Source: Candidatus Kaiserbacteria bacterium RIFCSPHIGHO2_02_FULL_49_34 (lineage in GTDB: Bacteria > Patescibacteriota > Minisyncoccia > Phycocordibacterales > UBA918). Taken from it: a stretch of DNA of 64,000 nt. Made by a program: the position numbers and the translations under genes. Under the pieces are notes generated by a model. That model had not been told where the DNA came from. It ran no database searches and saw nothing but the letters and a program-made list of their open reading frames with translations. Positions 1,199-63,647 of the stretch are shown here, piece by piece (position 1 is the stretch's first letter; every line of letters starts with the position of its first letter). The DNA lies in NCBI GenBank assembly GCA_001781205.1, contig MFLE01000014.1:26107-90106 (forward strand). Direction: 5' to 3'.

Positions 1199-1364
1199 TG
1201 TCATCCTCGGGATTTAGAAAGTAAACGAGCGAGAGCGAGTATTACTTTCAAATACCCGGGGATCCAGGCGTTAGAGCAATAGCTTTTCAGCCTGGATCCC
1301 CGGGTATGTGAAAAAAAACACGGACTAGACGTCCGTGTTTCTTTTCTACATCCCGAGGATGACA
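1199..1364. repeat. Nested inverted-repeat element (rearranged relative of family 1) that embeds a bidirectional terminator
   Basis: Outer IR tgtcatcctcgggat (1199-1213) / atcccgaggatgaca (1350-1364). Inner perfect 18-bp IR atacccggggatccaggc (1252-1269) / gcctggatccccgggtat (1290-1307). Shares the GGATCC and GGATGACA motifs with family 1. Confidence 0.7.
1311..1347. terminator. Bidirectional intrinsic terminator between the Gmad2-like gene and tig
   Basis: A8 run, hairpin cacggac-taga-c-gtccgtg, then T-rich tttcttttct. Serves the convergent genes on either side. Confidence 0.7.
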
Positions 1365-1381: not shown

Positions 1382-2473
1382 CTATGCTTTTTCGAGCATG
1401 TTCATTACGGCGTCATTAGTCAGGAACGACGTAACGTATGCCCGCACGCGTGTTTCGTCGGCGTCTTTGAAGCGTGCGAGGAGTCCTTGCACTTCTACTT
1501 CGAGTGCTTCGGGGGTCGGCTTAATGTCGTCCTTCTTCGCAATTGCTTCGAGGATAAGCTGGAGCTTTGCGCGCTTTTGCGCCATCGGCAACCATTCTGC
1601 ACGCATGTCGTCACGTGTCTTCTTTACATGGCTGAGGTAGTCGTCCATCTTGAGGTTTGCACGAGTAAGGTCATCTTCCATCTGCGCAAACATCTGCTTG
1701 ATTTCTGTATCGATGAGAATGTCAGGGAGTTCAAGTGTTGTTGCTTCGACAATTGCATCGGTAATTGCTGCTTTGTGCTTTGAAGCAACTTCGTTTTTCT
1801 TTTCAATCTCGAGGTGTTCGCGGATTTTTGCTTTGAACTCTTCAACTGATGAGAATTGTCCTGGCGCGCCGAGTTCTTTTACAGTTTCTTCGGTGAGTTC
1901 AATCTTCACAGGCTCTGCATCAGCAATTGCTTTTGCTTCGTCGGTGTTGCCTTCTTGTTCTGCAGCCTGGAGCTTCTGCATCTTTTCCCATGCTGTTTTA
2001 CGGTGAAGAATGTCGTCGATTTGCTTCTGAACGTCTTCATCAGAAACTTCTACCGTTTCCTTCGTTTTATTGATACCAGCAGCGATACCCTTGTAGTCCG
2101 GAAGTTCGAATGTTGGCACGACTGACTGCACGATTGAGAAACCTACCGGGTTTCCTACTGCGAGCTTCGTAAGCGTAAGTGCTGGACCACCGAGGGCATC
2201 AATGCCTTTCGCCTTCAAGATCTCTTCGTATGCCTTAATAATCGTACGAAATGCCATTTCCTGAAGGAGTGCACCTTCGCCAATCTGCTTTACAAGCGCG
2301 GCCTCGGGAATGTTCCCCGGACGAAATCCGTCGAGCTTGATGCCCTTCCCAAGATGTGCAACCGCTGCTGCACGCTGTTTTTCTGCGAGTTCCCATGGGA
2401 GTTCGCCAACAATAGTCACCTGCGACTTTTCTGCGGGAGTCACCGCAATCGCGTCAAGAATTTTTATATCCAT
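1382..2473 (-). CDS. tig: Trigger factor (short form)
   Basis: MDIKILDAIAVTPAEKSQVTIVGELPWELAEK...GFRPGNIPEAALVKQIGEGALLQEM is a trigger-factor ribosome-binding N-domain. At 363 aa it is shorter than the canonical ~430 aa. Confidence 0.85.
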   Translation of the reverse strand: MDIKILDAIAVTPAEKSQVTIVGELPWELAEKQRAAAVAHLGKGIKLDGFRPGNIPEAALVKQIGEGALLQEMAFRTIIKAYEEILKAKGIDALGGPALTLTKLAVGNPVGFSIVQSVVPTFELPDYKGIAAGINKTKETVEVSDEDVQKQIDDILHRKTAWEKMQKLQAAEQEGNTDEAKAIADAEPVKIELTEETVKELGAPGQFSSVEEFKAKIREHLEIEKKNEVASKHKAAITDAIVEATTLELPDILIDTEIKQMFAQMEDDLTRANLKMDDYLSHVKKTRDDMRAEWLPMAQKRAKLQLILEAIAKKDDIKPTPEALEVEVQGLLARFKDADETRVRAYVTSFLTNDAVMNMLEKA

Positions 2474-8913: not shown

Positions 8914-9124
8914 AAAACTACCGAGCAGTTTCGCAGCGACACAATCGCCACTAAGTTACTTGCGCTCTATCGCGAAATACTCACACCACAGAAACAGACA
9001 ATGTCCGCTACTTGAAACTGGACCTCCTTACAGAAAAAGAGCCGCCTTGTAGTACTCTAAGACTTGTTTTCTTCAGTCCGTGCTATACTTTACTCATGAG
9101 ACGCTTGACGTTCCGTATATTTTT

Positions 9125-17157: not shown

Positions 17158-18888
17158 ATGCAACTTACTGATGCTCAAATAAAACGGTTTGTGCTCGATA
17201 CGCACTTGGTAACACGCAAAGATGTGGATGCGGCTGCGGCAAAAGCGTCCGACCGTGGGATTTCTTTTGCGGATGCACTGCGCAGCCAAGGATCGCTCAC
17301 GCAGGACGACATCCGCCGCGCGAGCGCATATGTGCTTGGCGTACCATATGTCTCGCTCGTAAAACGCGCCATCGACCCGCACGTGATGCTACTTATGCCA
17401 GAAGCTATAGCCCGCACCTACAGCGCCATTCCCTATGCAATGACTGACGACACTATTGAGGTCGCCGTGCTTGACCTCGCGCATATCCCTGCACTCGAAG
17501 GACGTATGCGTACTGGCGGACGTCGCATGGTTGCACGACTTACCGACACCGCATCCATTCAATCGGCACTGAGCCGCTACCAGCGCCATCTCCACATCGA
17601 ATACAGCGATATCATCCGCAGCGCCTCCGACTCCCTCAAAAAAGCAATCACTCCTGATGAAGTAGAAGCAGGTGCGAAGAAACTCCTCGACACACTCATA
17701 AGTCACGCCCTCACCCAAGAAGCGCGTGTAATCCATATCGAACCAGGCGATGCATGCATTATCCGCTACCGCATCGGTACAACGCTCCATGATGCCATGG
17801 AGCTCCCGAAGCATGTCCTCGAACCGCTCGCTCGCATTGTCACTAAAGTGGCGCGTCTTGGTACAGCGACGGGAAGCGCGCACGACGGACGCTTCCGTAT
17901 TACTCGCCATGGTGAACGCATTGCGGTTCGCGTACGCACTATGCCAACACACACCGGCGTCACCACCGCACTCACTCTCGTACGTGGTAGTAGTCACGGC
18001 TTCACTCTCGACGGTCTCGGCTTCCACGGCGCAATGCTCGATGACTTCCTCCGTGCAAGTGCTGATCCGCACGCGAACATTCTCATCAGCGGCCCTGCAG
18101 GATCCGGCAAAACAACCACGCTCTATACCCTGCTCGACACGCTGCGCACACCAGCGACGAATGTCCTCACGGTTGAATCATCCATCAGTGCACCACTCGC
18201 GCGTATTGGACAGGTCAGTATCCGTCCCGATATCGGCTTCGACACCCGAGCAGCACTGCGCGCCGCACTTGCGCAGGACCCTGATGTGGTTGGTATCGAT
18301 GTCGCAAGTGACCAAACTGAACTTCTACAATTGCTTAGTGGCGCACGACTTCGCTCCATCCGCACCATCACCACCTCTTCACTCGGTGCTGCATGTGAGG
18401 CACTCGAGGTATTTGCAAAAGCTGCTGACGAGGCAACGCTTCCCCTCACCCACGTACTCGGCATCGCATCCGTCCGCATGCTCGGCGTAAACCGCGAAGC
18501 ATATCATCTCAGCGCACGCGAAATGGACAATCTTCGGAGCGTCGCCCGCATGAGCGACATTCTAGAAATACTCAAAGAAGAGCGTATCGTTCCTCCGAAG
18601 GCAACGTGGAGCAGTGTCCCCTTCTACCGTGCGCCACTCGAGACACCTGAACATGAAATCCATGCCGGCATGATTGGCGTCCATGAGCTTCTCACCGTCA
18701 CACCCGAACTCCTCACTGCATCGAAAAAACCCGACGCCTCGAACTACCTCGCCCACGCCGTCGAGCACGGCATGTTTACCCTCGTCGAGGACGCCATCAT
18801 GAAGGCCTCCATGGGAATCACCACCCTTGAAGAAGTCTGGCGCATCGTTGCCCTCTACTATGGCGAGAATGCAATTCCGACAAAATAA
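17158..18888 (+). CDS. GspE/PilB-family secretion ATPase (second paralog in the window)
   Basis: T2SSE_N-like N-domain; Walker A ILISGPAGSGKTTTLYTLLD. Confidence 0.75.
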   Translation: MQLTDAQIKRFVLDTHLVTRKDVDAAAAKASDRGISFADALRSQGSLTQDDIRRASAYVLGVPYVSLVKRAIDPHVMLLMPEAIARTYSAIPYAMTDDTIEVAVLDLAHIPALEGRMRTGGRRMVARLTDTASIQSALSRYQRHLHIEYSDIIRSASDSLKKAITPDEVEAGAKKLLDTLISHALTQEARVIHIEPGDACIIRYRIGTTLHDAMELPKHVLEPLARIVTKVARLGTATGSAHDGRFRITRHGERIAVRVRTMPTHTGVTTALTLVRGSSHGFTLDGLGFHGAMLDDFLRASADPHANILISGPAGSGKTTTLYTLLDTLRTPATNVLTVESSISAPLARIGQVSIRPDIGFDTRAALRAALAQDPDVVGIDVASDQTELLQLLSGARLRSIRTITTSSLGAACEALEVFAKAADEATLPLTHVLGIASVRMLGVNREAYHLSAREMDNLRSVARMSDILEILKEERIVPPKATWSSVPFYRAPLETPEHEIHAGMIGVHELLTVTPELLTASKKPDASNYLAHAVEHGMFTLVEDAIMKASMGITTLEEVWRIVALYYGENAIPTK

Positions 18889-29162: not shown

Positions 29163-29600
29163 ATGTCTACTCTCGTAACCAGTCCGCGTGCGCGGTATGA
29201 TTTTGAGATTCTTGAAACGCTCACCGCGGGGGTTTCTTTGTTGGGTACGGAAGTTGCATCGCTCAAGAAAAACCAAGGAAAGCTCATTGGTTCGTATGTG
29301 AAGCTTATCAAAGGCGTACCAATGCTACTTGGTGCATATATTCCGCCATTCCAGGTTGCGAACGCACCAAAAGACTACTCCCCCACTCGCGACCGAGCGC
29401 TACTTCTCAATAAAAAAGAAATCGCGAAGCTCGAACGCGAACTCCACGAAAAAAACCTCACTCTCATCCCGCTCCGCTTCTTCCGCGGCGGCCCCCACAT
29501 CAAACTAGAAATCGCCCTTGCAAAAGGCAAAAAGAAATTCGACAAACGCGAAACCATCAAAAAGCGCGACATCTCCCGTGATATTGCTCGTAAAATTTAG
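29163..29600 (+). CDS. smpB: SsrA-binding protein SmpB
   Basis: ARYDFEILETLTAGVSLLGTEV...IPLRFF...GKKKFDKRE. Confidence 0.9.
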   Translation: MSTLVTSPRARYDFEILETLTAGVSLLGTEVASLKKNQGKLIGSYVKLIKGVPMLLGAYIPPFQVANAPKDYSPTRDRALLLNKKEIAKLERELHEKNLTLIPLRFFRGGPHIKLEIALAKGKKKFDKRETIKKRDISRDIARKI

Positions 29601-31191: not shown

Positions 31192-31591
31192 GGGGATGAC
31201 AGGCTTTGACGGTTACGGTCCGTGCGAATGGCGCGTGTCGAAGATGGTGTTGTGCTTCGTAAAAACACACCAACCCTTAATTGCAAAAGCAATCAAGAGT
31301 CCTTACGCTCCAGCGTACGGATACGCATACGCTGCATAGGTTGAGCCGTTAGGCTCCCTCGCACGTTGCGCGTTACGCTTCGTTCGTCATATCTCGAAGC
31401 AGTGGCGTTATATCGATATGACTCGGCAGGAGCACGGCGTTCTACGCGCTCCACTTAAAAAGCAAGAACTGCACTTCGCCTTCTCGTTCACTCTCTCGAA
31501 AGCGAAGTTAAGCCCCAAGAGTGTCCTACACACGTAGACACCCTCGCACACCATAATTCGGACGAGAGTTCAATTCTCTCCATCTCCACCA
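31192..31591 (+). ncRNA. ssrA: tmRNA (SsrA)
   Basis: 5' GGGGATG pairs with 3' CATCTCC-ACCA (the G3:U wobble alanine identity element is present); T-arm-like gagagttcaattctctc. Internal tag reading frame ...SPYAPAYGYAYAA followed by TAG (ending near 31347). smpB lies 1.6 kb upstream. Confidence 0.8.
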
Positions 31592-33328: not shown

Positions 33329-34033
33329 CTATTCCTCCGAGTTATCTACACAGAGATTATTGATGTGCTCTATAAATATTTTGAAGGATGGAGATTTGCT
33401 ACATGCCAATTCTATGTTGATCTGACCGCCAAATAGCTGCCCTTGTCCTATTCTTTGTCCACAATATTCTGCTGTCAGAATTTCATCAAGGACACCTTTC
33501 GGATCTGGGATCTCGTCAGTATCTTGAAGTGCTCTTAAGCGTGTTAATTCAACATCTTTTGAAGCATCAAAACAATCCTCTTCAAATGTTGAACCTGCGA
33601 GAAACCATGATTCCACTTCTTGTTTTGCTATATGCACAGATTGGTTGATGTCGGCAAATGCGCTATTACATGCGTTTAGAAATGCTTGTTTTCTTTTTTC
33701 AATATCTCCCTCTGAAAGTGAGTCGCGGTCTGAGATAAGAATAACCTCTGCCTGATGGCTAGCAAGACCATACATGCTTATCTTTGAGTTCAAGAGTAGT
33801 CGCGCCTTTCTATATATTCTGGATTTCTCCATCTCGTTCCAGCCACCAGAACTATTACTTCCTGGATGTCCAATTACTGCATAGGAATCTGACGATGTAC
33901 TTTTAATTAAGAAATACTCATTCTTACTACCTGCATCAGTAAATCCGTAATGAGAAATGAGTAATGACTTAACAAATTCTCTCGTTGTTGCATCTTCCAG
34001 AATAAACAGTATGACTATTGGATTTTTTATCAT
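33329..34033 (-). CDS. Stand-alone TOPRIM-like nuclease partner of the upstream OLD-family ATPase (RloB/DUF4435/DUF4276-like); defence-system component
   Basis: N-terminal IVILFILEDATTREFV (TOPRIM Glu motif) and central VILISDRDSLSEGD (DxD motif). AT-rich codon usage; 5 nt downstream of the ATPase gene. Confidence 0.55.
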   Translation of the reverse strand: MIKNPIVILFILEDATTREFVKSLLISHYGFTDAGSKNEYFLIKSTSSDSYAVIGHPGSNSSGGWNEMEKSRIYRKARLLLNSKISMYGLASHQAEVILISDRDSLSEGDIEKRKQAFLNACNSAFADINQSVHIAKQEVESWFLAGSTFEEDCFDASKDVELTRLRALQDTDEIPDPKGVLDEILTAEYCGQRIGQGQLFGGQINIELACSKSPSFKIFIEHINNLCVDNSEE

Positions 34034-34038
34034 ACTGA

Positions 34039-35412
34039 TTATTTCTTATTTGTAGCATCTGTAGGAAATATGTCATCCAACGTGCCATCACTAAATAATT
34101 CAGAATTACGCATCTCTTCTAACCAGCTCGTATCTCCAGGAATTTTTGAGATAATATCTGCATACGTATACATATTTGAATTACAGCTCTCTCGCTTGCC
34201 GTTTACAAAATGTGTATCTTTAAGCCAAAACAATTCATCACGAGTAAACCTATCTATAAAATGCGGCGAATGCGTTGTGATAAAAATCTGTACTTTGGAC
34301 GCTATGCCACGCAACACCTCTACGTACTTTTCAGTAAGTGATGGATGAATTATTGATTCAACTTCATCAAAAAGCATCACGCTCGGCATTCTATAGCTCC
34401 TTGCAGAGGTATCTAAAAAAATCCAATTTTTAAGGGTTATGAAATAGAGGAGCACTACCGTACCTGCAGAAAGAGTTGCTATGCTCTTCGGCGATGCTGG
34501 TGACTCTATGAGAACTGTGCCTTTCGTGGGGAAGGAGCCCGATGTTGCAATTTCAACTTTTGTAAGAATATTTTCGGTATAAAGTGACAAATCGGAACAA
34601 TAACGCGCAAATGCTTTCTTGTCTCTCTGAATATCAGCGAGAAGATGTATAAACTTTGCTTTACTAAAACTAGATACAGACCAATCCTGTTCTTGTTTAT
34701 TTATTCTCTGCACAACCTGCTCTTGCTCTTCCTCTCCATATTTTTCAGTGACATAATTAAATATTTTGTTCGAACTAAATTCGTTATCGTTATCATCTAC
34801 CCAATTTGTATGGATTCTTTCACTGCATTCTTTATATATATCCATCAAAAACGGATTTCTAATCTCCTTCTCAGTCTCGCGAAGCTCATCTGCATTCTCT
34901 ATATTTTTCTTGAATTCACGCTGATACACCAACTCATTACTCACATTGAGTGCACTTTCTCTCATTTGCGAGACAATACCACTTCTTCTAGTCACTTCAT
35001 TAAAATCAGACTGATCGACTTCTTTCGTAGATTTTTTTCCACTATAGAAAAGTTCATATTTCTTTGAAGATCCTGTTTTTTCTATGGAATTAATAAATAT
35101 GAAGTCAGATATTGACATATGATCTAACTTAATTTTTGCGCTCTCCTCTATGCGATAATATGTTCTGGCTTCGCCTATATTACTCAATGTAATTTTAAAA
35201 TCAGTCTTCTTTTTTCCTGGACCATATGTCACAATATTATCGAAAAAGACATCAGTAAAATCATTACGGACCTCAGCTATATGTGAAAGCGCTTTAAGAA
35301 AGTTAGTTTTTCCGCTAGAATTTCTTCCTGTTATTATATTTATTGGACCAAACTCGCTTTCCACATTAAGCAAATTCCTAAAGTTCCTTATTTCAATATT
35401 TTTGATTTTCAT
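34039..35412 (-). CDS. OLD-family / AAA_15-AAA_21-type ABC ATPase (AriA/AbiLi-like); defence-system component
   Basis: MKIKNIEIRNFRNL...Walker A GRNSSGKTN; ABC signature-like LSAGTVVLLYF; Walker B VMLFDEVESIIHP; H-loop ITTHSP. About 30% GC. Start set to ATG 35412; the track ORF runs to 35472. Confidence 0.7.
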   Translation of the reverse strand: MKIKNIEIRNFRNLLNVESEFGPINIITGRNSSGKTNFLKALSHIAEVRNDFTDVFFDNIVTYGPGKKKTDFKITLSNIGEARTYYRIEESAKIKLDHMSISDFIFINSIEKTGSSKKYELFYSGKKSTKEVDQSDFNEVTRRSGIVSQMRESALNVSNELVYQREFKKNIENADELRETEKEIRNPFLMDIYKECSERIHTNWVDDNDNEFSSNKIFNYVTEKYGEEEQEQVVQRINKQEQDWSVSSFSKAKFIHLLADIQRDKKAFARYCSDLSLYTENILTKVEIATSGSFPTKGTVLIESPASPKSIATLSAGTVVLLYFITLKNWIFLDTSARSYRMPSVMLFDEVESIIHPSLTEKYVEVLRGIASKVQIFITTHSPHFIDRFTRDELFWLKDTHFVNGKRESCNSNMYTYADIISKIPGDTSWLEEMRNSELFSDGTLDDIFPTDATNKK

Positions 35413-35553
35413 AAATTTGAGCAGACCTATGTTTATATGTATAAAATGTACTCCTATATGTAGAAAAGTCAAGTTAAATATCCATATATCAATATTATCA
35501 TTCAGAAATCTTCGTTAAACCGCTGACATGCAGCGTTTTTTGTGGCTCTTCTA

Positions 35554-37920: not shown

Positions 37921-38073
37921 GTGCGCAGTATACCACCAGACACCAAAATCAGTGAGATTCAAAAAAACCGCGAGCGCTATCTCGTGGTTTTTTAGAACAC
38001 TATTCAGAACAATCTAATTCTTTTAAAATTTACTTCAACCAGTGCAGATGGACCAATTTTGAAAGAATTAGGA

Positions 38074-38727
38074 TTAGTCGATGATTTGGAGATTAGTACC
38101 CACTTCGTAGAGGTCAGTACTGTTACCGCCATCAGTTGCCATCTTATTGGTGCCACCCTGGTCACCTGCAGTGTCGCCATAGGCAATACTTTCAAGACGT
38201 GCCGTCATTTCAAACGCAAGTGGTGCATTTGAACATGCGTAGCGGTAAACCATAGTCGTTGATGCAAGAGTACCGGTCGTGAGGGCTGTAGTATCCTGTG
38301 CGGGATCAAGCGGAAGTGCTGCAAGTGGCGAACCGCCAGCAATACCACCAAAATCTACAGGAATCCAACCAAGACCGGTGCCGTCTCCGTTTCCTACTGT
38401 TGTGTCAGCGCTTCCAACATAGGTTACGCCACTAACCGCTGCTCCTGTGATTGGCTTACTAAGATACACTTGCCCTGGCGCTGCATTTGGTGCTGGGAAA
38501 CAGGTGCCGAGCGATGGGTTTGGTGTCACTGTCATATACATCGCAATAGCAGTACGTACTGATGAGAGATCAGAGAGGCGCTGCACGTCACGTGCGCGGC
38601 GGAGTGTTTCCACTGGGTTAATAACAATAACGAGTATGGTCGCGAGAATGGCAATAATCGCGATCACAATGAGGAGCTCGAGCAGGGTGAAGCCCTTGGC
38701 TGTTGAAGTTGATGATGTTGAACGCAT
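38074..38727 (-). CDS. Type IV pilin / pseudopilin (prepilin with class III signal)
   Basis: KGFTLLELLIVIAIIAILATI N-methylation motif, with a Gly/Thr-rich C-terminal domain. Confidence 0.8.
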   Translation of the reverse strand: MRSTSSTSTAKGFTLLELLIVIAIIAILATILVIVINPVETLRRARDVQRLSDLSSVRTAIAMYMTVTPNPSLGTCFPAPNAAPGQVYLSKPITGAAVSGVTYVGSADTTVGNGDGTGLGWIPVDFGGIAGGSPLAALPLDPAQDTTALTTGTLASTTMVYRYACSNAPLAFEMTARLESIAYGDTAGDQGGTNKMATDGGNSTDLYEVGTNLQIID

Positions 38728-38897: not shown

Positions 38898-39028
38898 GCC
38901 TGGATCCCGTCAGGATGACAAAAGTTTGATGCAATGTTTAAAATTAATGAATGGTTAAAATCGATTTTAACCATTCATTAATTTTAAACCACATTCCCTC
39001 CTTTTGTCATCCTGACGGGATCCAGCGC
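38898..39028. repeat. Palindromic MITE-like repeat, family 1, copy C
   Basis: gCCTGGATCCcgtcaGGATGACAAAAg ... cTTTTGTCATCCtgacgGGATCCAGc, with a 50-bp perfect central palindrome ttaaaattaatgaatGGTTAAAATCGATTTTAACCattcattaattttaa. Confidence 0.85.
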
Positions 39029-39097: not shown

Positions 39098-40564
39098 TTG
39101 AGGTCAGAAGATATCCACACATCGTTTTTTCGAAATGACGGTATACTAGTCGTGATGAGTTTCTTTGCGCACTTTATACGAGACGAACGGATTACCGCAC
39201 TCCACATTGCAGAAGACGCAGTGTCTGCACTTTCATTTACGCATACCACAAAACAGCTCAGTGCTATCCGCATCACGCGCATCCCCCTTGCCGCAGGCGT
39301 AATTATCGAAGGTCGCGTCGCAGACCCGACGGCACTCTCTCGCGTCTTGCGCGACCTTCGTATCAAAAACAAGGCATACCGCCACGTTGTTGTCGCGCTT
39401 CCGCATGCGGCAATTTTCACCAAAGCAGTTATCTTTCCCGAAACACTCGACGCAGAAAATGACGCCGCACGCCTCCTTGAAACAGCAAACCTTTCACTTG
39501 AGTGGAATATCCCCTTCCATCCTAACGAACGCTTCGCCGATGTTGATATCCTCCATGAACCAGTCTCAGGCATGCATATTCATGCCATTGCAGCCGAACA
39601 TGCCACCCCCTATATTACCGCACTCGAAAACGCCGGCTTCAAACTTGTTGCCCTCGAATCTGAACACGACGCTATTGCACGTGCCGCAGAGCGGGGTGCA
39701 CACGTCATCACGTCCTTTACCAGTCCCACCTACGAAAATATCCTTGCCTGCCGCGACGGCTTTGCCCTCCTCTCAAGTACTCACGCACTGGGCGCATTCC
39801 CCACAAAAACCGCACGAACAAATGCAGTGAAGCGTGCCGCAGAATTTGTCGCATCACGGTTTGGCAAGCGTCCGGTGGTTAAGGTCTTCGAGAAACTCCC
39901 CCTTCTCGAAGAAGTGAAAAAGATTATCGATGCTCGCAACGATATCTCACTCATACCACTCCTTGGTGTCGCACTCCGTGCACGTACCGCACGCCGCGAC
40001 GATGTCGCTGCAAGCCTCCTCCCTATCGGCACGGAAGAAGCCTACGAATACCAAAAACTCGAAGCATTCATCGGCGGACTTGGCACACTTACCCTCCTCA
40101 CCGCACTCATCATTACCGGCGCCGCAATCTCTGCATGGTACGGTGTCCGTACACAGCTCGCGACAATTCCTCGAGGCGACCTCTTCACCGAAACATTCTC
40201 AGTCGACACCGCACTTACGGAAGAGCGTGCAAACTACGAACGATGGAGCGCGGTTATTGCCACCGTTGGCCCCCTTGCAACCGAAGAAACTTCCTTCGCA
40301 CGCATGACCGCCTTCATTCGAACATACGCCATCAGCGGCATCTCAATCCGTGATGTATCTGCCGACGCAACCACCGTTCGTCTTGGCGGCGTCGCTCGTA
40401 GTCGAACCCACCTCAACACATTCCGCGACGCGCTCAAGAGTGCGGAAGAAGTCGCAACCGTAGAACTCCCTATTACCGACGCCGAACTCCGCGGTGACAT
40501 CCCGTTCCAAATGACCATTACCTTTAAGCCTGCTGTTTGGCAATCCTGGGTACCCAATAACTAA
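39098..40564 (+). CDS. PilM-PilN fusion protein (actin-like pilus assembly ATPase-fold domain, TM, periplasmic PilN-like domain)
   Basis: The N-terminal ~320 aa resembles PilM; TM GLGTLTLLTALIITGAAISAWY; C-terminal ~140 aa. Start could be an internal Met near 39155. Confidence 0.6.
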   Translation: MRSEDIHTSFFRNDGILVVMSFFAHFIRDERITALHIAEDAVSALSFTHTTKQLSAIRITRIPLAAGVIIEGRVADPTALSRVLRDLRIKNKAYRHVVVALPHAAIFTKAVIFPETLDAENDAARLLETANLSLEWNIPFHPNERFADVDILHEPVSGMHIHAIAAEHATPYITALENAGFKLVALESEHDAIARAAERGAHVITSFTSPTYENILACRDGFALLSSTHALGAFPTKTARTNAVKRAAEFVASRFGKRPVVKVFEKLPLLEEVKKIIDARNDISLIPLLGVALRARTARRDDVAASLLPIGTEEAYEYQKLEAFIGGLGTLTLLTALIITGAAISAWYGVRTQLATIPRGDLFTETFSVDTALTEERANYERWSAVIATVGPLATEETSFARMTAFIRTYAISGISIRDVSADATTVRLGGVARSRTHLNTFRDALKSAEEVATVELPITDAELRGDIPFQMTITFKPAVWQSWVPNN

Positions 40565-40565
40565 C

Positions 40566-40685
40566 TTCTTTCAAAATGGGATGAAATTGCGTTGGTTGGA
40601 GCAAAATTTTGACGGAGCCGTACCCAATGTACGGTGAGGGCAAAATTTTGCGAAACCAATGCAAGTTTGCCCATTTTGAAAGAAG
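40566..40685. repeat. MITE-like repeat, family 2, copy 1 (perfect 16-bp terminal inverted repeats)
   Basis: cttctttcaaaatggg ... cccattttgaaagaag; internal conserved core gccGTACCcaatGTACggtga flanked by the self-complementary gcaaaattttg/caaaattttgc. Confidence 0.8.
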
Positions 40686-44350: not shown

Positions 44351-44481
44351 GCTGGATCCCTCTTGGATGACAAATGTTAGGTGCTATGTTCAAAAGAGAT
44401 TTATGGTTAAAATCGATTTTAAACTCTTATTAATTTAGAGCACACTACCCAAAATTTGTCATCCAGGAGGGATCCGGAGTC
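44351..44481. repeat. Palindromic MITE-like repeat, family 1, copy D (inside the umuD-like/polymerase operon)
   Basis: gCTGGATCCctcttGGATGACAAAtg ... aaaTTTGTCATCCaggagGGATCCgGAGtc; core ttatGGTTAAAATCGATTTTAAac. Confidence 0.8.
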
Positions 44482-44910: not shown

Positions 44911-46752
44911 TTAATCAGAGGTCATGACACGGCTGCCTGCAGATCCATTACAGAAATTATTTCCAACACCACAGGAGACAGCAACGAATATACCTCCACC
45001 ATATGTGACGCCCCTCCAGTTATTTTGAGCGGCTGAGGTTCGAGATGTCCAAGTGATGCCGTCTGGTGAAGTCATGACACGGTTGCCAGCACCAGTACGT
45101 GACACTGCAACAAAGAGGTCTTGTCCATAGGTGACGGATTGCCAGCCATTGTCTGGAGCACTTGTGCTAGTTGTCCAAGTGATGCCGTCTGGTGAAGTCA
45201 TGACACGGTTGCCAGCACCCGTAACAGCAACTGCGACAAAGAGTCCGTTGCCGTAGGTGACGCCGACCCAGCTATTATCTGCAGCACTGGTTTGAGTTGT
45301 CCAGGTGATGCCGTCGGGTGAGGTCATGACGCGATCGCCGGTACCGTTACTAGACACTGCGACAAAGAGTCCGTTGCCGTAGGTGACGGAGCTCCATTGG
45401 TTAGTTGTAGCACTGGTACGGGAAGTCCAAGTGATGCCGTCGGGTGAGGTCATAACACTGTTCACCGTACTGTCGTTAGACACTGCGACAAAGAGTCCGT
45501 TGCCGTAGGTGACGCCGACCCAGCTATTATCTGCAGCACTGGTTTGAGTTGTCCAGGTGATGCCGTCGGGTGAAGTCATGACGCGATCGCCAATACCATT
45601 CCCTGCAACGGCGACGAAGAGACCATTGCCATAGGTGACGGAGCCCCAGGCATTATCTGCAGCGCTGGTTTGGGATGTCCAGGTGATGCCGTCAGGTGAG
45701 GTCATGACGCGGTTGCCGAAGCCTGTGCTTGCAACTGCGACAAAGAGTCCGTTGCCGTAGGTGACAGAGTTCCAGAAGTTATCCGCAGCGGAGACACGAG
45801 ATGTCCACTCAACGCCTGCTTGCGCCTTCGCAATCACCGCAATGGTGTTTGCTCCTGTGCAGGTACCCTTCACTCCACTTGCAGGAATAGCAATGTTCCA
45901 GTAAAGGTTTGCGGAGAGCTCGTTAGATTCGTCGGTACGGAGGAGGATGTTTCGTTTTGCTGAAGCAGGAGTATCGGTAAGAACAATTGATGTGGCATGA
46001 TCGACATCGGTGAGCGCCCACGCCTGTGTTGAAGTAGCGAGTGTACCGAGTGCGCTGCAGCCCATATTCGAACCAGAGAGCTGCACATCAGCCTTTGTGT
46101 TGCCTCGCTGTGTGATGACTGTCTCTACGTTTGTGGTTGATGATGAAACTTCACCAAGTGAACGAGTGCCGTAATCAATAACATCGGGGAGATTGAGAGC
46201 AAGAAGTGAGTTAACTTCTACTGTTGCAGAAAGAGCACCTTGTGTTGACGCAAAATCTTGAACAGTAACATATGCGGTCCAACTATCGCTTGTATAGGCA
46301 CTTGCTGCATCAGTTGCATCAATCCAGTAAGCAAGCGGCACTTCACAGTTGTAGGCGATTTCTGTGTCGGAGCCTTCGGAGTAGTTCGTGGTACAAGAAT
46401 TAATTACGTAGCAGTCGTTGTTGTCGGCGGCGCAGGTGTTGGTACTGCTTGTTTTGTGGAAGACAAGAGCGAGTGTTGATGAAGCAATATCGTTTTCTCC
46501 GTTTGCATCAGAGATTTGTCCGTTGATGTGAATAGTTCTGTCAGTACCGACGTTCGGGAGAATACCTGAGCTTGTTAAATCATCTGTGCCGTACGCGGTT
46601 GTGGCGATACGGATGGTGTCGACGGTTGGTGCAACGTTAATAATTTCTGCAGTGGTTGCGACATCGGCTGCGCCAGTGTAGCGGATGATGATTCCTACGA
46701 TGAGGAGGAATGCGACGACAATCAAGGTGCCGAATATTTTTATATTTGTCAT
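44911..46752 (-). CDS. Membrane-anchored surface protein with 8 tandem ~38-aa Asp-box-like (SPDGITWT) repeats, paralog A
   Basis: N-terminal MTNIKIFGTLIVVAFLLIVGIIIRYTGA anchor; ~300-aa Thr/Ser-rich domain; repeats GNRVMTSPDGITWTsrTSAadNnWxSVTYGNGLFVAVs. The track ORF runs to 46824. Confidence 0.7.
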   Translation of the reverse strand: MTNIKIFGTLIVVAFLLIVGIIIRYTGAADVATTAEIINVAPTVDTIRIATTAYGTDDLTSSGILPNVGTDRTIHINGQISDANGENDIASSTLALVFHKTSSTNTCAADNNDCYVINSCTTNYSEGSDTEIAYNCEVPLAYWIDATDAASAYTSDSWTAYVTVQDFASTQGALSATVEVNSLLALNLPDVIDYGTRSLGEVSSSTTNVETVITQRGNTKADVQLSGSNMGCSALGTLATSTQAWALTDVDHATSIVLTDTPASAKRNILLRTDESNELSANLYWNIAIPASGVKGTCTGANTIAVIAKAQAGVEWTSRVSAADNFWNSVTYGNGLFVAVASTGFGNRVMTSPDGITWTSQTSAADNAWGSVTYGNGLFVAVAGNGIGDRVMTSPDGITWTTQTSAADNSWVGVTYGNGLFVAVSNDSTVNSVMTSPDGITWTSRTSATTNQWSSVTYGNGLFVAVSSNGTGDRVMTSPDGITWTTQTSAADNSWVGVTYGNGLFVAVAVTGAGNRVMTSPDGITWTTSTSAPDNGWQSVTYGQDLFVAVSRTGAGNRVMTSPDGITWTSRTSAAQNNWRGVTYGGGIFVAVSCGVGNNFCNGSAGSRVMTSD

Positions 46753-46760
46753 ATGTGCAT

Positions 46761-46797
46761 AGTATACCTTGATTTGTGAAATCAGATAGTGGACAAC
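46761..46797 (-). promoter_or_regulatory. Promoter of paralog A carrying the shared motif
   Basis: On the coding strand: GTTGTCCAC, 22 nt, TATACT, 8 nt, ATG. Confidence 0.5.
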
Positions 46798-46837
46798 CTC
46801 ACAGGAACTAGCACTACCATTCATGTGTATTAAAAAA

Positions 46838-46864
46838 TCCCCTGGAGCGGGATTTTTGATTAGG
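46838..46864. terminator. Terminator after surface protein gene B
   Basis: aaaaatcccctggagcgggattttt. Confidence 0.7.
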
Positions 46865-46872
46865 CCTTATTA

Positions 46873-48693
46873 TTAATCAGAGGTCATGACGCGGTTGCCG
46901 GTGCCGTTATATGAAACTGCAACAAAGAGTCCGTTATTGTAGGTAACTGAGACCCAACCATTATTTGCGGCGCTGGTACGAGACGTCCAAGTGATGCCGT
47001 CAGGCGAGGTCATGACGCGGTTGCCGGTGCCAGTGTTAGAAACTGCTACGAAGAGGCCGTCGCCGTAGGTAACTGAATTCCAGTTATTGGCAGCAGCACT
47101 CGTGCGGGAGGTCCAAGTGATGCCGTCAGGCGAGGTCATGACGGTATCATTCGTGCCCGTGAAATCAGAAACTGCAACAAAGAGTCCGTTGCCGTAGGTG
47201 ACACTGAGCCAGTTGTTATCTACAGCACTCGTGCGGGAGGTCCAAGTGATGCCGTCTGGTGAAGTCATGACACGGTTACCAGTACCGTTATACGAAACTG
47301 CTACGAAGAGACCGTTGCCGTAGGTGACGGAGCGCCAGTTGATATCTACAGCGTTGACGCGAGACGTCCAAGTGATGCCGTCAGGCGAGGTCATGACGCG
47401 GTTGCCGGTGCCAGAGTCAGAAACTGCTACGAAGAGACCATTACCGTAGGCGACGGAGCGCCAGAAGTTGTCTGCTGCTGAAGTTTGGGATGTCCAAGTG
47501 ATACCGTCTGGTGATGTCATGACGCGGTTACCAGCACCAGAGTCAGAAACTGCTACGAAGAGACCGTTACCGTAGGCGACGGAGTTCCAGCTGTTATTTG
47601 CAGCACTCGTGCGAGACGTCCAAGTGATGCCGTCAGGCGAGGTCATGACGCGGTTGCCGGTGCCAGTGTTAGAAACTGCTACGAAGAGGCCGTCGCCGTA
47701 AGTGACGGAGCGCCAGTTGTTATCTACAGCACTCGTACGAGACGTCCACTCAATACCTGCTTGCAACTTTGCAATCACTGCAATTGTGTTTGCACCAGTA
47801 CATGTCCCCTTCACGCCAGTTGAAGGAATAGCAATGTTCCAGTAAAGGTTTGCGGAGAGCTCGTTAGATTCATCAGTACGAGGTGCAACGTTTCGTTTTG
47901 CAGGAGTGAGTGTTCCTGTAAGTATAGTTGACGAAGCGTGGTTGATATCAGTAAGCGCCCAGGCTTGTGTATTCACAGGTAGCGTACCAAGTATACTACA
48001 GCCCATAACATCACCAGAGACTTGCACATCAGCTCTTGTGTTGCCACGTTGCGTGATGACGGTTTCAATGTTTGTTGTTGATGACGAGACTTCACCAAGT
48101 GAACGAGTGCCATAATCGATAGCATCGGGGAGATTGAGAGCAAGAAGCGAGTTCACCTCGATGGTTGCTTGTAGTGCTCCTGATGTTGAAGTCAAATCAG
48201 CGACGCTGACGTATGCAGTCCAATTGTCACTAGTGAATGCCGACCCTGCATCGGTTGCATCTATCCAGTACGCGAGCGGTACTTCACAGTTGTAGGCAAT
48301 CTGTGTGTCATCGCCGTCGGCGTAATTTGTATTGCAGGTTGTAATGCGATAGCAGTCGTTGTTGTCGGCGGCACACGCACCTGTTGCTGAGGTTTTATGA
48401 AAAACGAGACTGATAGTGCTTGAGGCAATGTCATTTTCTCCGTTTGCGTCGCTCATGACACCATTGATATGAATGGTTCTATCGGTACCTACGTTCGGGA
48501 GAATACCTGAGCTTGTTAAATCATCTGTGCCATACGCAGTGGTTGCAAAACGAATCGTATCAACGGTTGGTGCGGTATTCTGAATTTCTGCAGTTGTTGC
48601 GACATCGGCTGCGCCGGTGTAGCGGATGACGATTCCTACGATGAGGAGGAATGTGACGGCGACGAGTGTGCCGAATATTTTTATATTTGTCAT
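46873..48693 (-). CDS. Membrane-anchored surface protein with 8 tandem Asp-box-like repeats, paralog B
   Basis: Near-identical N-terminus and architecture to paralog A, indicating a tandem duplication. The track ORF runs to 48762. Confidence 0.7.
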   Translation of the reverse strand: MTNIKIFGTLVAVTFLLIVGIVIRYTGAADVATTAEIQNTAPTVDTIRFATTAYGTDDLTSSGILPNVGTDRTIHINGVMSDANGENDIASSTISLVFHKTSATGACAADNNDCYRITTCNTNYADGDDTQIAYNCEVPLAYWIDATDAGSAFTSDNWTAYVSVADLTSTSGALQATIEVNSLLALNLPDAIDYGTRSLGEVSSSTTNIETVITQRGNTRADVQVSGDVMGCSILGTLPVNTQAWALTDINHASSTILTGTLTPAKRNVAPRTDESNELSANLYWNIAIPSTGVKGTCTGANTIAVIAKLQAGIEWTSRTSAVDNNWRSVTYGDGLFVAVSNTGTGNRVMTSPDGITWTSRTSAANNSWNSVAYGNGLFVAVSDSGAGNRVMTSPDGITWTSQTSAADNFWRSVAYGNGLFVAVSDSGTGNRVMTSPDGITWTSRVNAVDINWRSVTYGNGLFVAVSYNGTGNRVMTSPDGITWTSRTSAVDNNWLSVTYGNGLFVAVSDFTGTNDTVMTSPDGITWTSRTSAAANNWNSVTYGDGLFVAVSNTGTGNRVMTSPDGITWTSRTSAANNGWVSVTYNNGLFVAVSYNGTGNRVMTSD

Positions 48694-48701
48694 ATATGCA
48701 T

Positions 48702-48739
48702 AGTATATCTCCACTTTGCGAAAACACGAAGTGGATAAC
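48702..48739 (-). promoter_or_regulatory. Promoter of paralog B carrying the shared motif
   Basis: On the coding strand: GTTATCCAC, 23 nt, TATACT, 8 nt, ATG. Confidence 0.5.
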
Positions 48740-48789
48740 GCTTGGTTTGACAGACTCACCACAAGTCGCTTCTTTCTTCACGGGTACTT

Positions 48790-50924: not shown

Positions 50925-50977
50925 GGATTCAATCAAAATTGAGTGAATCTTAAAAATCACCTTGCGGTGATTTTTTG

Positions 50978-52632: not shown

Positions 52633-52670
52633 AGTTGTGTTTTAGGAACACGTAATCTAAACCGAGTGTA

Positions 52671-52790
52671 ATTCTTTCAAAATTGAGTGCAGTTGTGCTG
52701 ACTGGAGGGAGCGAGTGACTGAGCCGTACCTAAGTACGGTGAAGAAATGAGTGACTGAAGTCAGTACAAATGTGCCAATTTTGGAAGAAT
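52671..52790. repeat. MITE-like repeat, family 2, copy 2 (abuts the pilB stop codon)
   Basis: attctttcaaaattgag ... ccaattttggaagaat TIRs (14/16 match); core gccGTACCtaaGTACggtga. Confidence 0.75.
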
Positions 52791-54463
52791 TACTCTTGGA
52801 CTACACGTAGGACTTCCTCAATCGTCGTAACCCCCCTCTCGACTTTCTGCAATCCATCTTCAAACATTGTTGTCATACCGCCTTTAATTGCTTGTTTACG
52901 AATGACTGCAGCACCTGTTTGTTTCTGGGCAAGTTCGCGGAGCTCGTCATTCATTGCCATAATTTCAAAGACCGCAACCTGTCCAAGGAACCCACTGCCG
53001 CCACAGACAGAACATCCTTTGCCGCGATATAGAGTTTCGGGAACCGTTTTAATATGGGTATCTCCAAGCGCCTTTTTCTGTGCGGTTATCGCGCGTTTAA
53101 TTTCGGGAGAGATTTTATACGAATAAATACAGGTTGGGCAAATTTTACGTACCAGTCGTTGCGCGACAACCGCATTTATCGTCGACGCAAGCAGGAATGG
53201 CTCGACACCCATATCAACAAGTCGAGGCAGTGCTGACGGCGCGTCGTTGGTGTGGAGTGACGAGAGCACGAGATGTCCGGTAAGCGCAGCATGCACGGCA
53301 ATATCAGCAGTCTCTTCGTCGCGGATTTCTCCCACCATGATAATGTCAGGGTTTTGACGCAAGAGTGAACGGAGTCCGTTAGCAAAGGTAATGCCAGCGC
53401 GCGCGTTGACCTGTGTTTGGTTCACGTGGGGAAATTCATACTCGATAGGATCTTCGATGGTGGTAATATTTACCTTTGGAGAATTAAGTTTATGCAAGAT
53501 AGCATAGAGGGTAGTGGTTTTACCGTGCCCCGTTGGTCCGGTGACCAAAATCATGCCGTGTGGTTTATGTACTTCTGCCTCAAGAAGTGCTTCTTGCACG
53601 GGTGCGAGACCAATGTCGCGGAACGTGATAGGGCGCGATGTTGATCGAAGCAAGCGCATTTCTGCCTTTTCACCATGAAGCACCGGCATAATGTTCACGC
53701 GAATATCAATAGTGCCTGCGGCGTCAGCATTTGCACGGAAACGTCCATCTTGCGGCGCATTATGTTCATCAACTTGGAGGTTGGCGATAACTTTGATACG
53801 TGCAACCAGTGGTGCAGAAAATGATTTCGGAAACGAGGCGATTTCTTGCATAATACCGTCGATACGGGCACGTACTACAAGCATGTTTTCGAGAGGCTCG
53901 ACATGAAGGTCGCTCGCACCAAGTGTAATAGCGTGCTCGAGCAACGCATCGAGTGTTTCAATAATTGACGCACTTTCGCCATCTTGCGCCTCGACTGCAG
54001 CACGATGTGCGTCGAACACAACTCCCTGTGCCGCGCGGTATTTTTTGAGCGCATACGCCACGGATGACATCGTCACCACGGCCGCATTTACCCACTTCCC
54101 TGTCATTGCGCGAACTTCGGCAATGGTATCCGCATCACCCGGGTCAACCATACCGAGCGTCACGGTCGTGTCGTCTTCGGCAGTAATGAATACTCTGTGC
54201 GTTTTAATAAAAGCTTGGGGCAAACGCATGAGCGCGTCGTCCTCTGTCTCGCTTCGCTTTGCATCAAAAATTGGCACTTCGTAGTATGTGGCAAGCACTT
54301 CAGCAAGGTGTGCTTCTGAAATTTTACCCAATGAAATAAGAGTATCAAACGGCGACTTCCCTTGCTTTTTCGCTTCATCACGAGCGAGAGAAAGATCATC
54401 CTTCGTAACAAGTCCCGATGCAATAAAAAGAGAGTCGAATGTTTCTTGAGAAAGGTGCATATG
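52790..54463 (-). CDS. pilB: Type IV pilus assembly ATPase PilB/GspE
   Basis: GSPII_E N-domain; Walker A VTGPTGHGKTTTLYA; Asp/His boxes. Start set to ATG 54463 with TATACT 8 nt upstream. The track ORF runs to 54532. Confidence 0.85.
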   Translation of the reverse strand, partial: HMHLSQETFDSLFIASGLVTKDDLSLARDEAKKQGKSPFDTLISLGKISEAHLAEVLATYYEVPIFDAKRSETEDDALMRLPQAFIKTHRVFITAEDDTTVTLGMVDPGDADTIAEVRAMTGKWVNAAVVTMSSVAYALKKYRAAQGVVFDAHRAAVEAQDGESASIIETLDALLEHAITLGASDLHVEPLENMLVVRARIDGIMQEIASFPKSFSAPLVARIKVIANLQVDEHNAPQDGRFRANADAAGTIDIRVNIMPVLHGEKAEMRLLRSTSRPITFRDIGLAPVQEALLEAEVHKPHGMILVTGPTGHGKTTTLYAILHKLNSPKVNITTIEDPIEYEFPHVNQTQVNARAGITFANGLRSLLRQNPDIIMVGEIRDEETADIAVHAALTGHLVLSSLHTNDAPSALPRLVDMGVEPFLLASTINAVVAQRLVRKICPTCIYSYKISPEIKRAITAQKKALGDTHIKTVPETLYRGKGCSVCGGSGFLGQVAVFEIMAMNDELRELAQKQTGAAVIRKQAIKGGMTTMFEDGLQKVERGVTTIEEVLRVVQE

Positions 54464-59134: not shown

Positions 59135-59329
59135 CTGTCTAAAGTCACACGCCGAGCTAAAAGCTTCAGATTTTAAGGCAAATAACACGCTGGAGGAGGA
59201 GGCGAACCTTTGTTCGGTGACGACGAAGTGTGTTATTTGACCAAAATATGGAGGTTTTAGACGGCGAGTTTTCTCTTGTCTACTGATATCCTTATTTTAC
59301 AACACTACATACGGTGAGACTTTAGACAG
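59135..59329. promoter_or_regulatory. Divergent promoter region with a symmetric GACTTTAGACAG element and a nested hairpin
   Basis: ctgtctaaagtc (59135-59146) and gactttagacag (59318-59329) are a perfect 12-bp IR. The right copy overlaps the -35 (TAGACA, 16 nt, TATACT, 7 nt, ATG) of the SET gene. There is an internal 10-bp stem caaataacac (59179-59188) / gtgttatttg (59230-59239). Confidence 0.5.
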
Positions 59330-63464: not shown

Positions 63465-63489
63465 TATGATTCTCCTTGCAATGTAATTC

Positions 63490-63610
63490 CTCGTTCTAAA
63501 CTGAGTGCAGTTGCGTTGGATGGAAGACATTTTTAACTGTAGGCGTACCCAATGTACGACGGAAGTTAAAAATGTCTGAAGCCAATGCAAATGCGCCAGT
63601 TTTGGGCGAG
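63490..63610. repeat. MITE-like repeat, family 2, copy 3
   Basis: Conserved left end ctaaactGAGTGCAGTTGcgTTGGatGGA; core ggcGTACCcaatGTACgacgg flanked by the complementary 14-bp arms agacatttttaact / agttaaaaatgtct; right end gccagttttgggcgag. Confidence 0.75.
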
Positions 63611-63612
63611 GC

Positions 63613-63647
63613 TCAAAGAAAAGAGGGGTGCCGCTGTGGCACCCCTC
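63613..63647 (-). terminator. Terminator after prkA
   Basis: aggggtgccgctgtggcacccct hairpin followed, on the minus strand, by cttttctttg. Confidence 0.6.

Follow-up and report, generated by a model that had tools for sequence, protein, structure and literature searches.

A widespread family of strand-specific hairpin repeats beside bacterial stop codons that may move in trans as a folded single strand

Several classes of short palindromic repeats are known from bacterial genomes. ERIC (IRU) elements of enterobacteria are imperfect palindromes of 127 bp. REP units, 20–40 nt in length and tagged with GTAG or CGTC, make up the conserved ends of REPINs; both are mobilised by RAYT proteins, which are Y1 HUH transposases. 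Protection or processing of mRNA, or insulation of cistrons, has been proposed for REP and ERIC. The attC sites of integrons are imperfect palindromes of 57–141 nt beginning at the upstream ORF's stop codon, and their functional folded strand is antisense to that ORF. Classical MITEs, such as Correia/NEMIS and the TA-targeting elements derived from IS630, have conserved TIRs that match an insertion sequence and produce a fixed target duplication, e.g. TA.

The DNA analysed here, a 64,000-nucleotide stretch of a Candidatus Kaiserbacteria genome (hereafter the window), contains copies of a hairpin family of ~125-base elements that is apparently undescribed so far. Its members resemble ERIC in size, in that the whole element is one hairpin, in their intergenic placement within transcription units in either orientation, and in being non-coding, multi-copy and present also as internal-deletion variants. 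However, they share no sequence with ERIC (blastn with copy 2 found no match in 5,426 E. coli genomes) and their hosts belong to other phyla; furthermore, the ends vary here while the apex is conserved, the polarity relative to stop codons is strong and the fold is strand-specific. With REPs, REPINs and the hairpin-ended derivatives of IS200/IS605 the family has in common that it is non-autonomous, extragenic and hairpin-forming, with no target duplication expected, and the strand-specific, structure-recognising single-stranded DNA mechanism of those elements is the logic that we infer for it. In contrast to REPINs, the highest conservation is at the tip, the ends carry no visible conserved tag, and no RAYT or TnpA gene was found in the 64-kb window or in the 8–20 kb loci around other family members. 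Classical MITEs are similar in being short (under ~300–500 bp), non-coding and multi-copy, with inverted termini and insertion polymorphism, whereas the termini here differ among subfamilies, there is no consistent target duplication and no parent insertion sequence is known.

The comparison with attC sites is close enough that we considered whether the elements themselves mark the boundaries of cassettes and serve a tyrosine recombinase as folded single-stranded substrates. The two share a size range (imperfect palindromes of ~120 nt here), structure that is kept while the sequence varies, a start at the stop codon of the upstream gene and a folding strand that is antisense. However, no R''/R' boxes (RYYYAAC/GTTRRRY) were present at the ends on either strand of the window copies and of representative loci, no integrase was found in the window or the loci, and the conserved part is the apex, not the base. 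The copies are also solitary, not arranged in arrays, and lie by housekeeping genes that exist with or without the element, so that gain and loss are independent of the adjacent gene. We therefore regard an attC-like role as very improbable.

The window contains five copies and one remnant, with an element size of ~120–135 nt. The copies and their parts are as follows.

40565–40685, + strand: copy 1, full length, in sense orientation, directly after the TAA (40562–40564) of a PilM-like gene
40565–40580 pairing with 40670–40685, + strand: outer stem of copy 1, 16 bp, cttctttcaaaatggg / cccattttgaaagaag, perfect
40601–40611 pairing with 40641–40651, + strand: middle stem of copy 1, gcaaaattttg/caaaattttgc
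40615–40637, + strand: apical module of copy 1, GA-GCCGTAC-CCAAT-GTACGGT-GA, from the sequence
52668–52796, + strand: copy 2, full length, antisense to pilB and pilC, within the pilB-pilC operon
52790–52792, read on the − strand: pilB stop codon TTA, inside the base of the 3' arm of copy 2
52721–52742, + strand: apical module of copy 2, from sequence and fold
63487–63615, + strand: copy 3, full length, antisense to prkA and yeaH
~63541–63563, + strand: apical module of copy 3, GGCGTAC-CCAAT-GTACGAC, from the sequence
38015–38070, + strand: copy 4, internally deleted, with both ends and part of the 3' arm left
59157–59263, + strand: copy 5, divergent, covariance-model score 31.6 bits, E = 1e-5
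50925–50949, − strand: 25-nt mini-hairpin remnant, GGATTCAATC-AAAATT-GAGTGAATC, comprising the outer stem and the A/T box

The three full copies had been predicted from the sequence to align end to end, and they do so with a mean column identity of 77–79%. The other predicted details that we checked were likewise borne out: the perfect inverted ends of copy 1 are present; the middle arms of copy 3 (agacatttttaact/agttaaaaatgtct) are complementary to each other while unlike those of copy 1 in sequence; the middle arms of copy 2 are direct repeats of the purine-rich gagtgactga; and the placements hold, with copy 1 following the PilM-like stop, copy 2 abutting the pilB stop and copy 3 lying between the prkA terminator (63623–63647) and the yeaH Shine-Dalgarno sequence. 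RNA folding of the + strand gave one hairpin per copy, at −64 to −65 kcal/mol (z = −11 to −12), and none of 200 dinucleotide shuffles was as stable; copy 1 reaches −65.5 kcal/mol with z = −11.6 and a covariance-model score of 137 bits.

The remaining copies were recovered by repeat finding, an nhmmer profile and a covariance model built on six copies (R1). The divergent copy 5 has the apex GGCGAAC-CTTT-GTTCGGT and folds at −52.6 kcal/mol, compared with −37.6 for its reverse complement; it separates the divergent genes for a trypsin-like protein (− strand) and a SET-domain protein (+ strand). The deleted copy 4 lies 3 nt from the stop codon (38074–38076) of a pilin-like gene on the − strand, and the remnant directly follows the TAG of an 80-aa gene whose counterpart in a relative (L156) is followed by a full-length element (17824–17955, − strand). 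The element decays by internal deletion.

The repeat family is not local to its source genome and spans phyla. The same architecture is present in >130 loci, from Patescibacteria to Rokubacteria/Methylomirabilota, at 34–72% GC. When one genome per species was scanned for the core GCCGTACCYAAN{0,1}GTACGGTGA, 15 loci were obtained, 14 of them in Patescibacteria (Kaiserbacteria, Saccharimonadales, Uhrbacteria and unclassified members), and the long-hairpin architecture is present in 14/14 of these. A metagenome scan with the pattern GAGCCGTACN{4,5}GTACGGTGA gave at least 119 loci; among the first 100, the covariance model produced 78 hits, with a single architecture throughout. Both scans were single-shot and baited with the apical motif. 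The high-GC subgroup belongs to Rokubacteria/Methylomirabilota, in that the PrpE protein encoded next to one of its copies (L097) shares 94% identity with a protein from Methylomirabilota and 87% with one from Rokuibacteriota. PilC of the window has 100% identity with a protein of Candidatus Kaiserbacteria bacterium RIFCSPHIGHO2_02_FULL_49_3x, and contigs identical to that of the window are present in several groundwater metagenomes. There was no match to the family in 2.9 million viral contigs, and plasmids gave chance matches of 33 nt only. A search of the window and 20 loci against Rfam returned no family at the gathering score and, at E <= 10, only generic miRNA-hairpin noise. A literature search on repeats in the candidate phyla radiation or Rokubacteria, and on the core strings, found nothing relevant. 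That the copies are plain recent duplications or chance palindromes without family-level constraint is suggested by nothing except their small number in the window; with >130 copies in unrelated genomes sharing the fold in different sequences, together with the shuffle z-scores of −11 to −12, this explanation is already refuted and its probability is practically nil.

The element can be divided into seven parts from the base to the tip. The outermost part is a stem of 7–15 bp with a sequence that differs among subfamilies. It is followed by a short A-run on one arm that pairs with a T-run on the other, which is kept even at 70% GC, and then by a helix with a G.A mismatch or tandem G.A pairs (GAGUGCAG.../CAGAUG-type). 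The fourth part is a conserved purine-rich internal loop, with YAGG opposite AACRAA in most lineages and UGGA opposite GAA in the window copies. A middle stem of ~10–14 bp without sequence conservation leads to tandem G.A pairs and, above them, to an apical stem of 7 bp (G.U-C-C-G-U-A-C; GCCGUAC/GUACGGU) that is capped by a variable 4–5 nt loop. Sequence conservation is essentially confined to this apical module, a result that is partly circular because the same motif was the bait for most members; in copies found by the covariance model or repeat analysis the apex does vary (GGCGTAC..GTACGAC, GGCGAAC..GTTCGGT, GCCGTAT..ATACGGT). In one subtype, the A and T boxes are swapped. At one locus (L129 ~1795–1943, reverse strand), the whole apical module is tandemly duplicated (GAGCACCGTGC-GAGCCGTACACGGAGTACGGTGA, twice).

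Inverted ends are found in every copy. They are conserved within the Kaiserbacteria subfamily (TAATTCTTTCAAAAT...), and elsewhere the outermost 7–12 bp differ and covary. The ends had been interpreted as TIRs of a MITE; since they vary and covary among copies and lineages, they are probably not conserved transposase-binding ends but the base of a hairpin that extends over the whole length.

Three known structures that the apex recalls were tried and rejected. The string GAGCCGUAC...GUACGGU resembles the lower helix of domain V of group II introns, but Rfam gave no hit and both the bulge and the upper helix are missing, and we treated the resemblance as chance. A double-stranded operator of LexA or another protein (CGTAC-N4-GTACG; in copy 5, CGAAC-N4-GTTCG) does not agree with a loop of 4–5 nt and with covariation of the whole hairpin. 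The tandem G.A pairs are flanked by pairs and lack the 3-nt bulge of a k-turn.

Compensatory changes maintain base pairing along the whole hairpin. In an alignment of 57 copies, which was fitted to the model and leans towards it, standard pairs occupy 87.6% of the cells, compared with 54.9% in 500 shuffles and 35–45% when the partners are slid by 1–3 columns; the covariation score is 0.74, compared with 0.17 in the shuffles and 0.07–0.13 for slid partners, and both sides have changed in 46/49 pairs. The individual MFE folds of unaligned sequences give the same hairpin. The different yet complementary arms of copies 1 and 3 are real, and their pairing extends to the wider alignment.

One strand, the + strand in the window, is under structural selection. 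With RNA parameters, the strand oriented as the window + strand is more stable than its complement in 90/90 elements, by a mean of 14.5 kcal/mol, and with DNA parameters the same strand is more stable in 89/90; because the asymmetry holds with DNA parameters, it does not tell RNA from single-stranded DNA. The well-folding strand is 56.6% purine. We also counted single mismatches flanked by Watson-Crick pairs in folds in which G.U was forbidden, so that the scoring bias was removed, and found 101 G.T against 17 A.C and 118 purine-purine against 28 pyrimidine-pyrimidine mismatches. These counts share ancestry and are not independent events, and their direction is uniform across very divergent copies.

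A fold of this kind raises the question of whether the family consists of dispersed small structured RNA genes, in each of which the well-folding strand gives a transcript of ~100–130 nt that is antisense to the 3' ends of genes and binds a conserved protein through the apical G.A/GCCGUAC module. The strong covariation, the confinement to one strand of the conserved G.U pairs, tandem G.A pairs and purine-rich loops, and an architecture kept across phyla from 34% to 72% GC all agree with this. However, neither a σ70-like promoter nor a terminator was found at the three full copies, and the flanks are unrelated between copies, which means that no promoter travels with the element. Moreover, many copies lie inside operons on the opposite strand, their presence varies among relatives, and the asymmetry found with DNA energy parameters does not single out RNA. 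We consider such RNA genes unlikely.

The mobility of the element is seen by comparing filled and empty sites. We compared six Kaiserbacteria sites and one Rokubacteria site; the syntenic relatives of the window were L154 (PilM 71% identical) and L156 (68%; same organism as L145), and the state of the sites in the window and in these two is given below.

pilM-like gene/next gene (copy 1): window filled; L154 empty, TAA-GTATCTCTAT-ATG; L156 empty
pilB/pilC (copy 2): window filled; L154 empty, with a 14-nt spacer; L156 filled, with a different middle stem
pilin stop/XFP (copy 4): window internally deleted; L154 full length (8964–9095); L156 empty
ftsH/smpB: window empty; L154 not covered; L156 filled
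80-aa gene/pilin: window 25-nt remnant; L154 remnant; L156 filled

The spacer at the copy 1 site is 9–10 nt in L154 and L156. The pilB|pilC site is also empty in three further relatives (L141, L142 and L144; PilC 62–63% identical), where the spacers are 24–29 nt, and the last two sites are filled in L156 only. In Rokubacteria, a 126-nt copy lies between the convergent prpE and MFS transporter genes of L097, while seven relatives with 83–95% identical PrpE have a 12-nt spacer or an overlap instead; the MFS protein of L097 gains three codons and ends inside the element. As syntenic relatives lack the element where the window has copies 1, 2 and 4, and where L097 has its Rokubacteria copy, the element is mobile. 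Thus, of the original reading, the mobile, MITE-like and non-coding character stands. A comparison of filled and empty junctions for target-site duplications gave no consistent direct repeat; the weak candidates were TATGC/TGTGC, ACTAA/ATTAA and TA at some AT-rich copies. Insertion into the loop of a pre-existing hairpin, which would explain the variable outer stems, was rejected, as the truly empty sites contain no such hairpin.

The copies at the pilB|pilC site in the window and in L145/L156 have common outer arms and a common apex with unrelated middle stems, namely the purine-rich arms in the window and a Watson-Crick stem in L145/L156. A distant Kaiserbacteria genome of another genus (L020) also has the purine-rich module of copy 2. 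Unrelated modules at the same site, together with this recurrence, fit an exchange of modules between copies better than point covariation. Consequently, the complementary arms that had been taken as covariation preserving a stem are real, but they are not a matter of simple point covariation. In a further relative (L143 427–900; PilC 76% identical), the pilB|pilC junction holds a gene for a 124-aa 23S_rRNA_IVP (Avd-like four-helix-bundle) protein flanked by ~30-nt inverted repeats of TTTCTAAT-like units, and the junction appears to be an insertion hot spot.

The elements are placed and oriented relative to stop codons. On the 3' side of the well-folding strand, the flanking gene is encoded on the opposite strand in 73 cases and on the same strand in 31, and the stop codon of that antisense gene lies 40–55 nt from the core, which is the base of the hairpin, in 41/73; ORFs were defined here by a simple longest-ORF rule that is reliable in low-GC loci and crude in high-GC loci. 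In the low-GC loci, the stop is at the hairpin base for 35 antisense genes and 3 sense genes (p = 7e-8), and where both flanking genes are co-directed the element is antisense in 25 and sense in 5. Among the characterised insertions, 5/6 are within 0–3 nt of a stop codon. The conserved C-termini of EF-Tu, SSB (...DIPF) and PilB (...VVQE) are intact beside elements, showing that the element begins at or just after the native stop. The orientation bias could come from targeting, selection or both.

All five window copies are on the C-rich + strand, with the direction of replication inferred only from the uniformly negative GC skew. An orientation set by replication was considered and rejected: the L156 copy at 17824–17955 and the gene next to it are inverted as a unit, a finding in favour of a link to the gene. 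Two arrangements of neighbouring copies were seen elsewhere. A Kaiserbacteria locus has four copies in 3.1 kb (L017 2044–5143), two of them after the rpsL and rpsG stops and two head to head 38 nt apart, and in L015 (6187–7659) tuf lies between two mutually inverted copies.

Housekeeping genes adjoin the elements (tuf, rpsL, rpsG, ssb-rpsR, lepA, ribonucleotide reductase and type IV pilus genes), and no neighbour gene is shared among ~130 loci, the largest cluster being SSB at 7 loci. The same ssb|rpsR junction is occupied in lineages with SSB just 40–69% identical, and likewise the site after rpsG; this recurrence could reflect a conserved host function instead of repeated insertion. These positions bear on a host role as a cis-acting RNA in the 3' UTR or intercistronic region, in which a hairpin after the stop protects or processes the mRNA or insulates cistrons, as had been suggested in the original prediction with an mRNA-stability element or structured RNA. 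It would agree with copies located within transcription units, from stop codon to terminator or between cistrons, often after highly expressed genes (tuf, rpsL, rpsG, ssb), and with the reoccupied junctions in divergent lineages. However, in ~80–90% of informative cases the well-folding strand is antisense and the mRNA carries the weaker complement with A.C and pyrimidine-pyrimidine mismatches, placing selection on the non-transcribed strand; the element is missing at the same junctions in close relatives; and the hairpin is not followed by a U-tract or any terminator-like site at the three full copies. Since the fold is selected on a strand that is usually outside host mRNA and close relatives are without the element, the structure is probably not kept for the host mRNA, and we consider a cis-acting RNA quite unlikely. 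An intrinsic terminator or a promoter of its own was also rejected as the identity of the element, as neither was found at the three full copies and copies 1 and 2 are inside operons; the subtype with swapped A and T boxes also counts against them. With no promoter, terminator or linked gene found, an autonomous RNA gene or an autonomous transposon is not supported.

On balance, we favour a widespread family of non-autonomous mobile hairpin DNA that is moved in trans as a single strand. Each element is one imperfect palindrome of ~120–135 nt that has been gained beside genes in some lineages, and, as it encodes nothing and has no linked gene, it would be mobilised in trans. In agreement with this, there was no transposase among the window ORFs scanned or tabulated, no recurrent transposase neighbour among the family loci, and no split or composite copy, with its arms parted by an insert, in ~1.1 Mb of DNA. 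The folded single strand may be what the mobilising enzyme recognises, with single-stranded DNA likelier than a dedicated RNA, and the conserved apical module of tandem G.A pairs and the 7-bp GCCGUAC/GUACGGU stem may be the recognition handle. In this respect the enzyme would act like the HUH/Y1 enzymes of REP or IS200/IS605 hairpins, or like the integrases that use folded attC sites. Insertion would have a polarity and would target the 3' boundary of ORFs; copies in sense orientation would probably be purged faster, because a very stable hairpin would then enter the mRNA; middle-stem modules may be swapped between copies through gene conversion; and effects on neighbouring genes would be a by-product. 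Copy 1, the sole sense copy in the window, is the youngest-looking, being absent from both relatives and having nearly perfect stems, which fits the faster loss of sense copies in this one case.

Several observations count against a mobile element. No mobilising enzyme was identified in the 64-kb window or the 8–20 kb loci, and there was no consistent target-site duplication. The tandem G.A and G.U pairs and purine-rich internal loops are also typical of functional RNAs.

A more specific and rather doubtful proposal is that the family represents mobile hairpins of a new kind, homing to the 3' boundaries of ORFs and inserting in a polar manner 0–3 nt from stops in a preferred orientation. Its folded single strand, as DNA or as an RNA/cDNA intermediate, would be moved by a putative enzyme common to Patescibacteria, Rokubacteria and other phyla that reads the apical G.A/GCCGUAC module. 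If true, a homing hairpin would be a mode of transposition and targeting not described for MITEs, REPINs or attC sites. The single fold found across phyla at 34–72% GC implies a conserved partner that recognises the folded single strand, and the oriented association with stop codons, unexplained by known MITE mechanisms, provides a handle for finding the enzyme through phylogenetic co-occurrence. The elements also bear on the expression of operons such as str, rpsF-ssb-rpsR and the type IV pilus operons, and they cause assembly breaks and errors in gene calling where ORFs are extended into them; PilC of L156, for example, is called at 458 aa with its ORF extended into the element.

Patescibacteria genomes are very small, yet the source genome has at least three families of hairpin repeats with fast turnover. 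A second MITE-like family of ~124 bp occurs in the window at 472–595, 38900–39023 and 44352–44475, with long inverted termini CTGGATCC..GGATGACAAA and the apex TGGTTAAAATCGATTTTAACCA. Its copy at 44352–44475 lies between S24-peptidase and Y-family polymerase genes that are 10 nt apart or overlapping in L154 and L156, indicating an insertion here as well. A further palindromic repeat, the third (~165 bp; window 1199–1363), matches the Kaiserbacteria contig MFMN01 (L016 3842–4004) in both orientations at 75–81% identity.

Two paralogous genes on the − strand of the window (44911–48762) encode proteins of 637 and 629 aa with eleven 126-nt tandem units and a faint EPTP hit; this 3.9-kb block is missing in L154 and L156, where the S24-peptidase and signal-peptidase genes are adjacent. 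A low-GC segment (33329–35472; 41.5% GC) encodes an ABC/AAA_15-type ATPase and a DUF4276 protein that match the candidate defence system HEC-01 (A and B) in PADLOC, and it separates the genes for acetate kinase and phosphoketolase, which in L154 lie next to each other. The window further contains a tmRNA gene (31192–31591; Rfam RF00023, 120 bits) with smpB nearby at 29163–29600.
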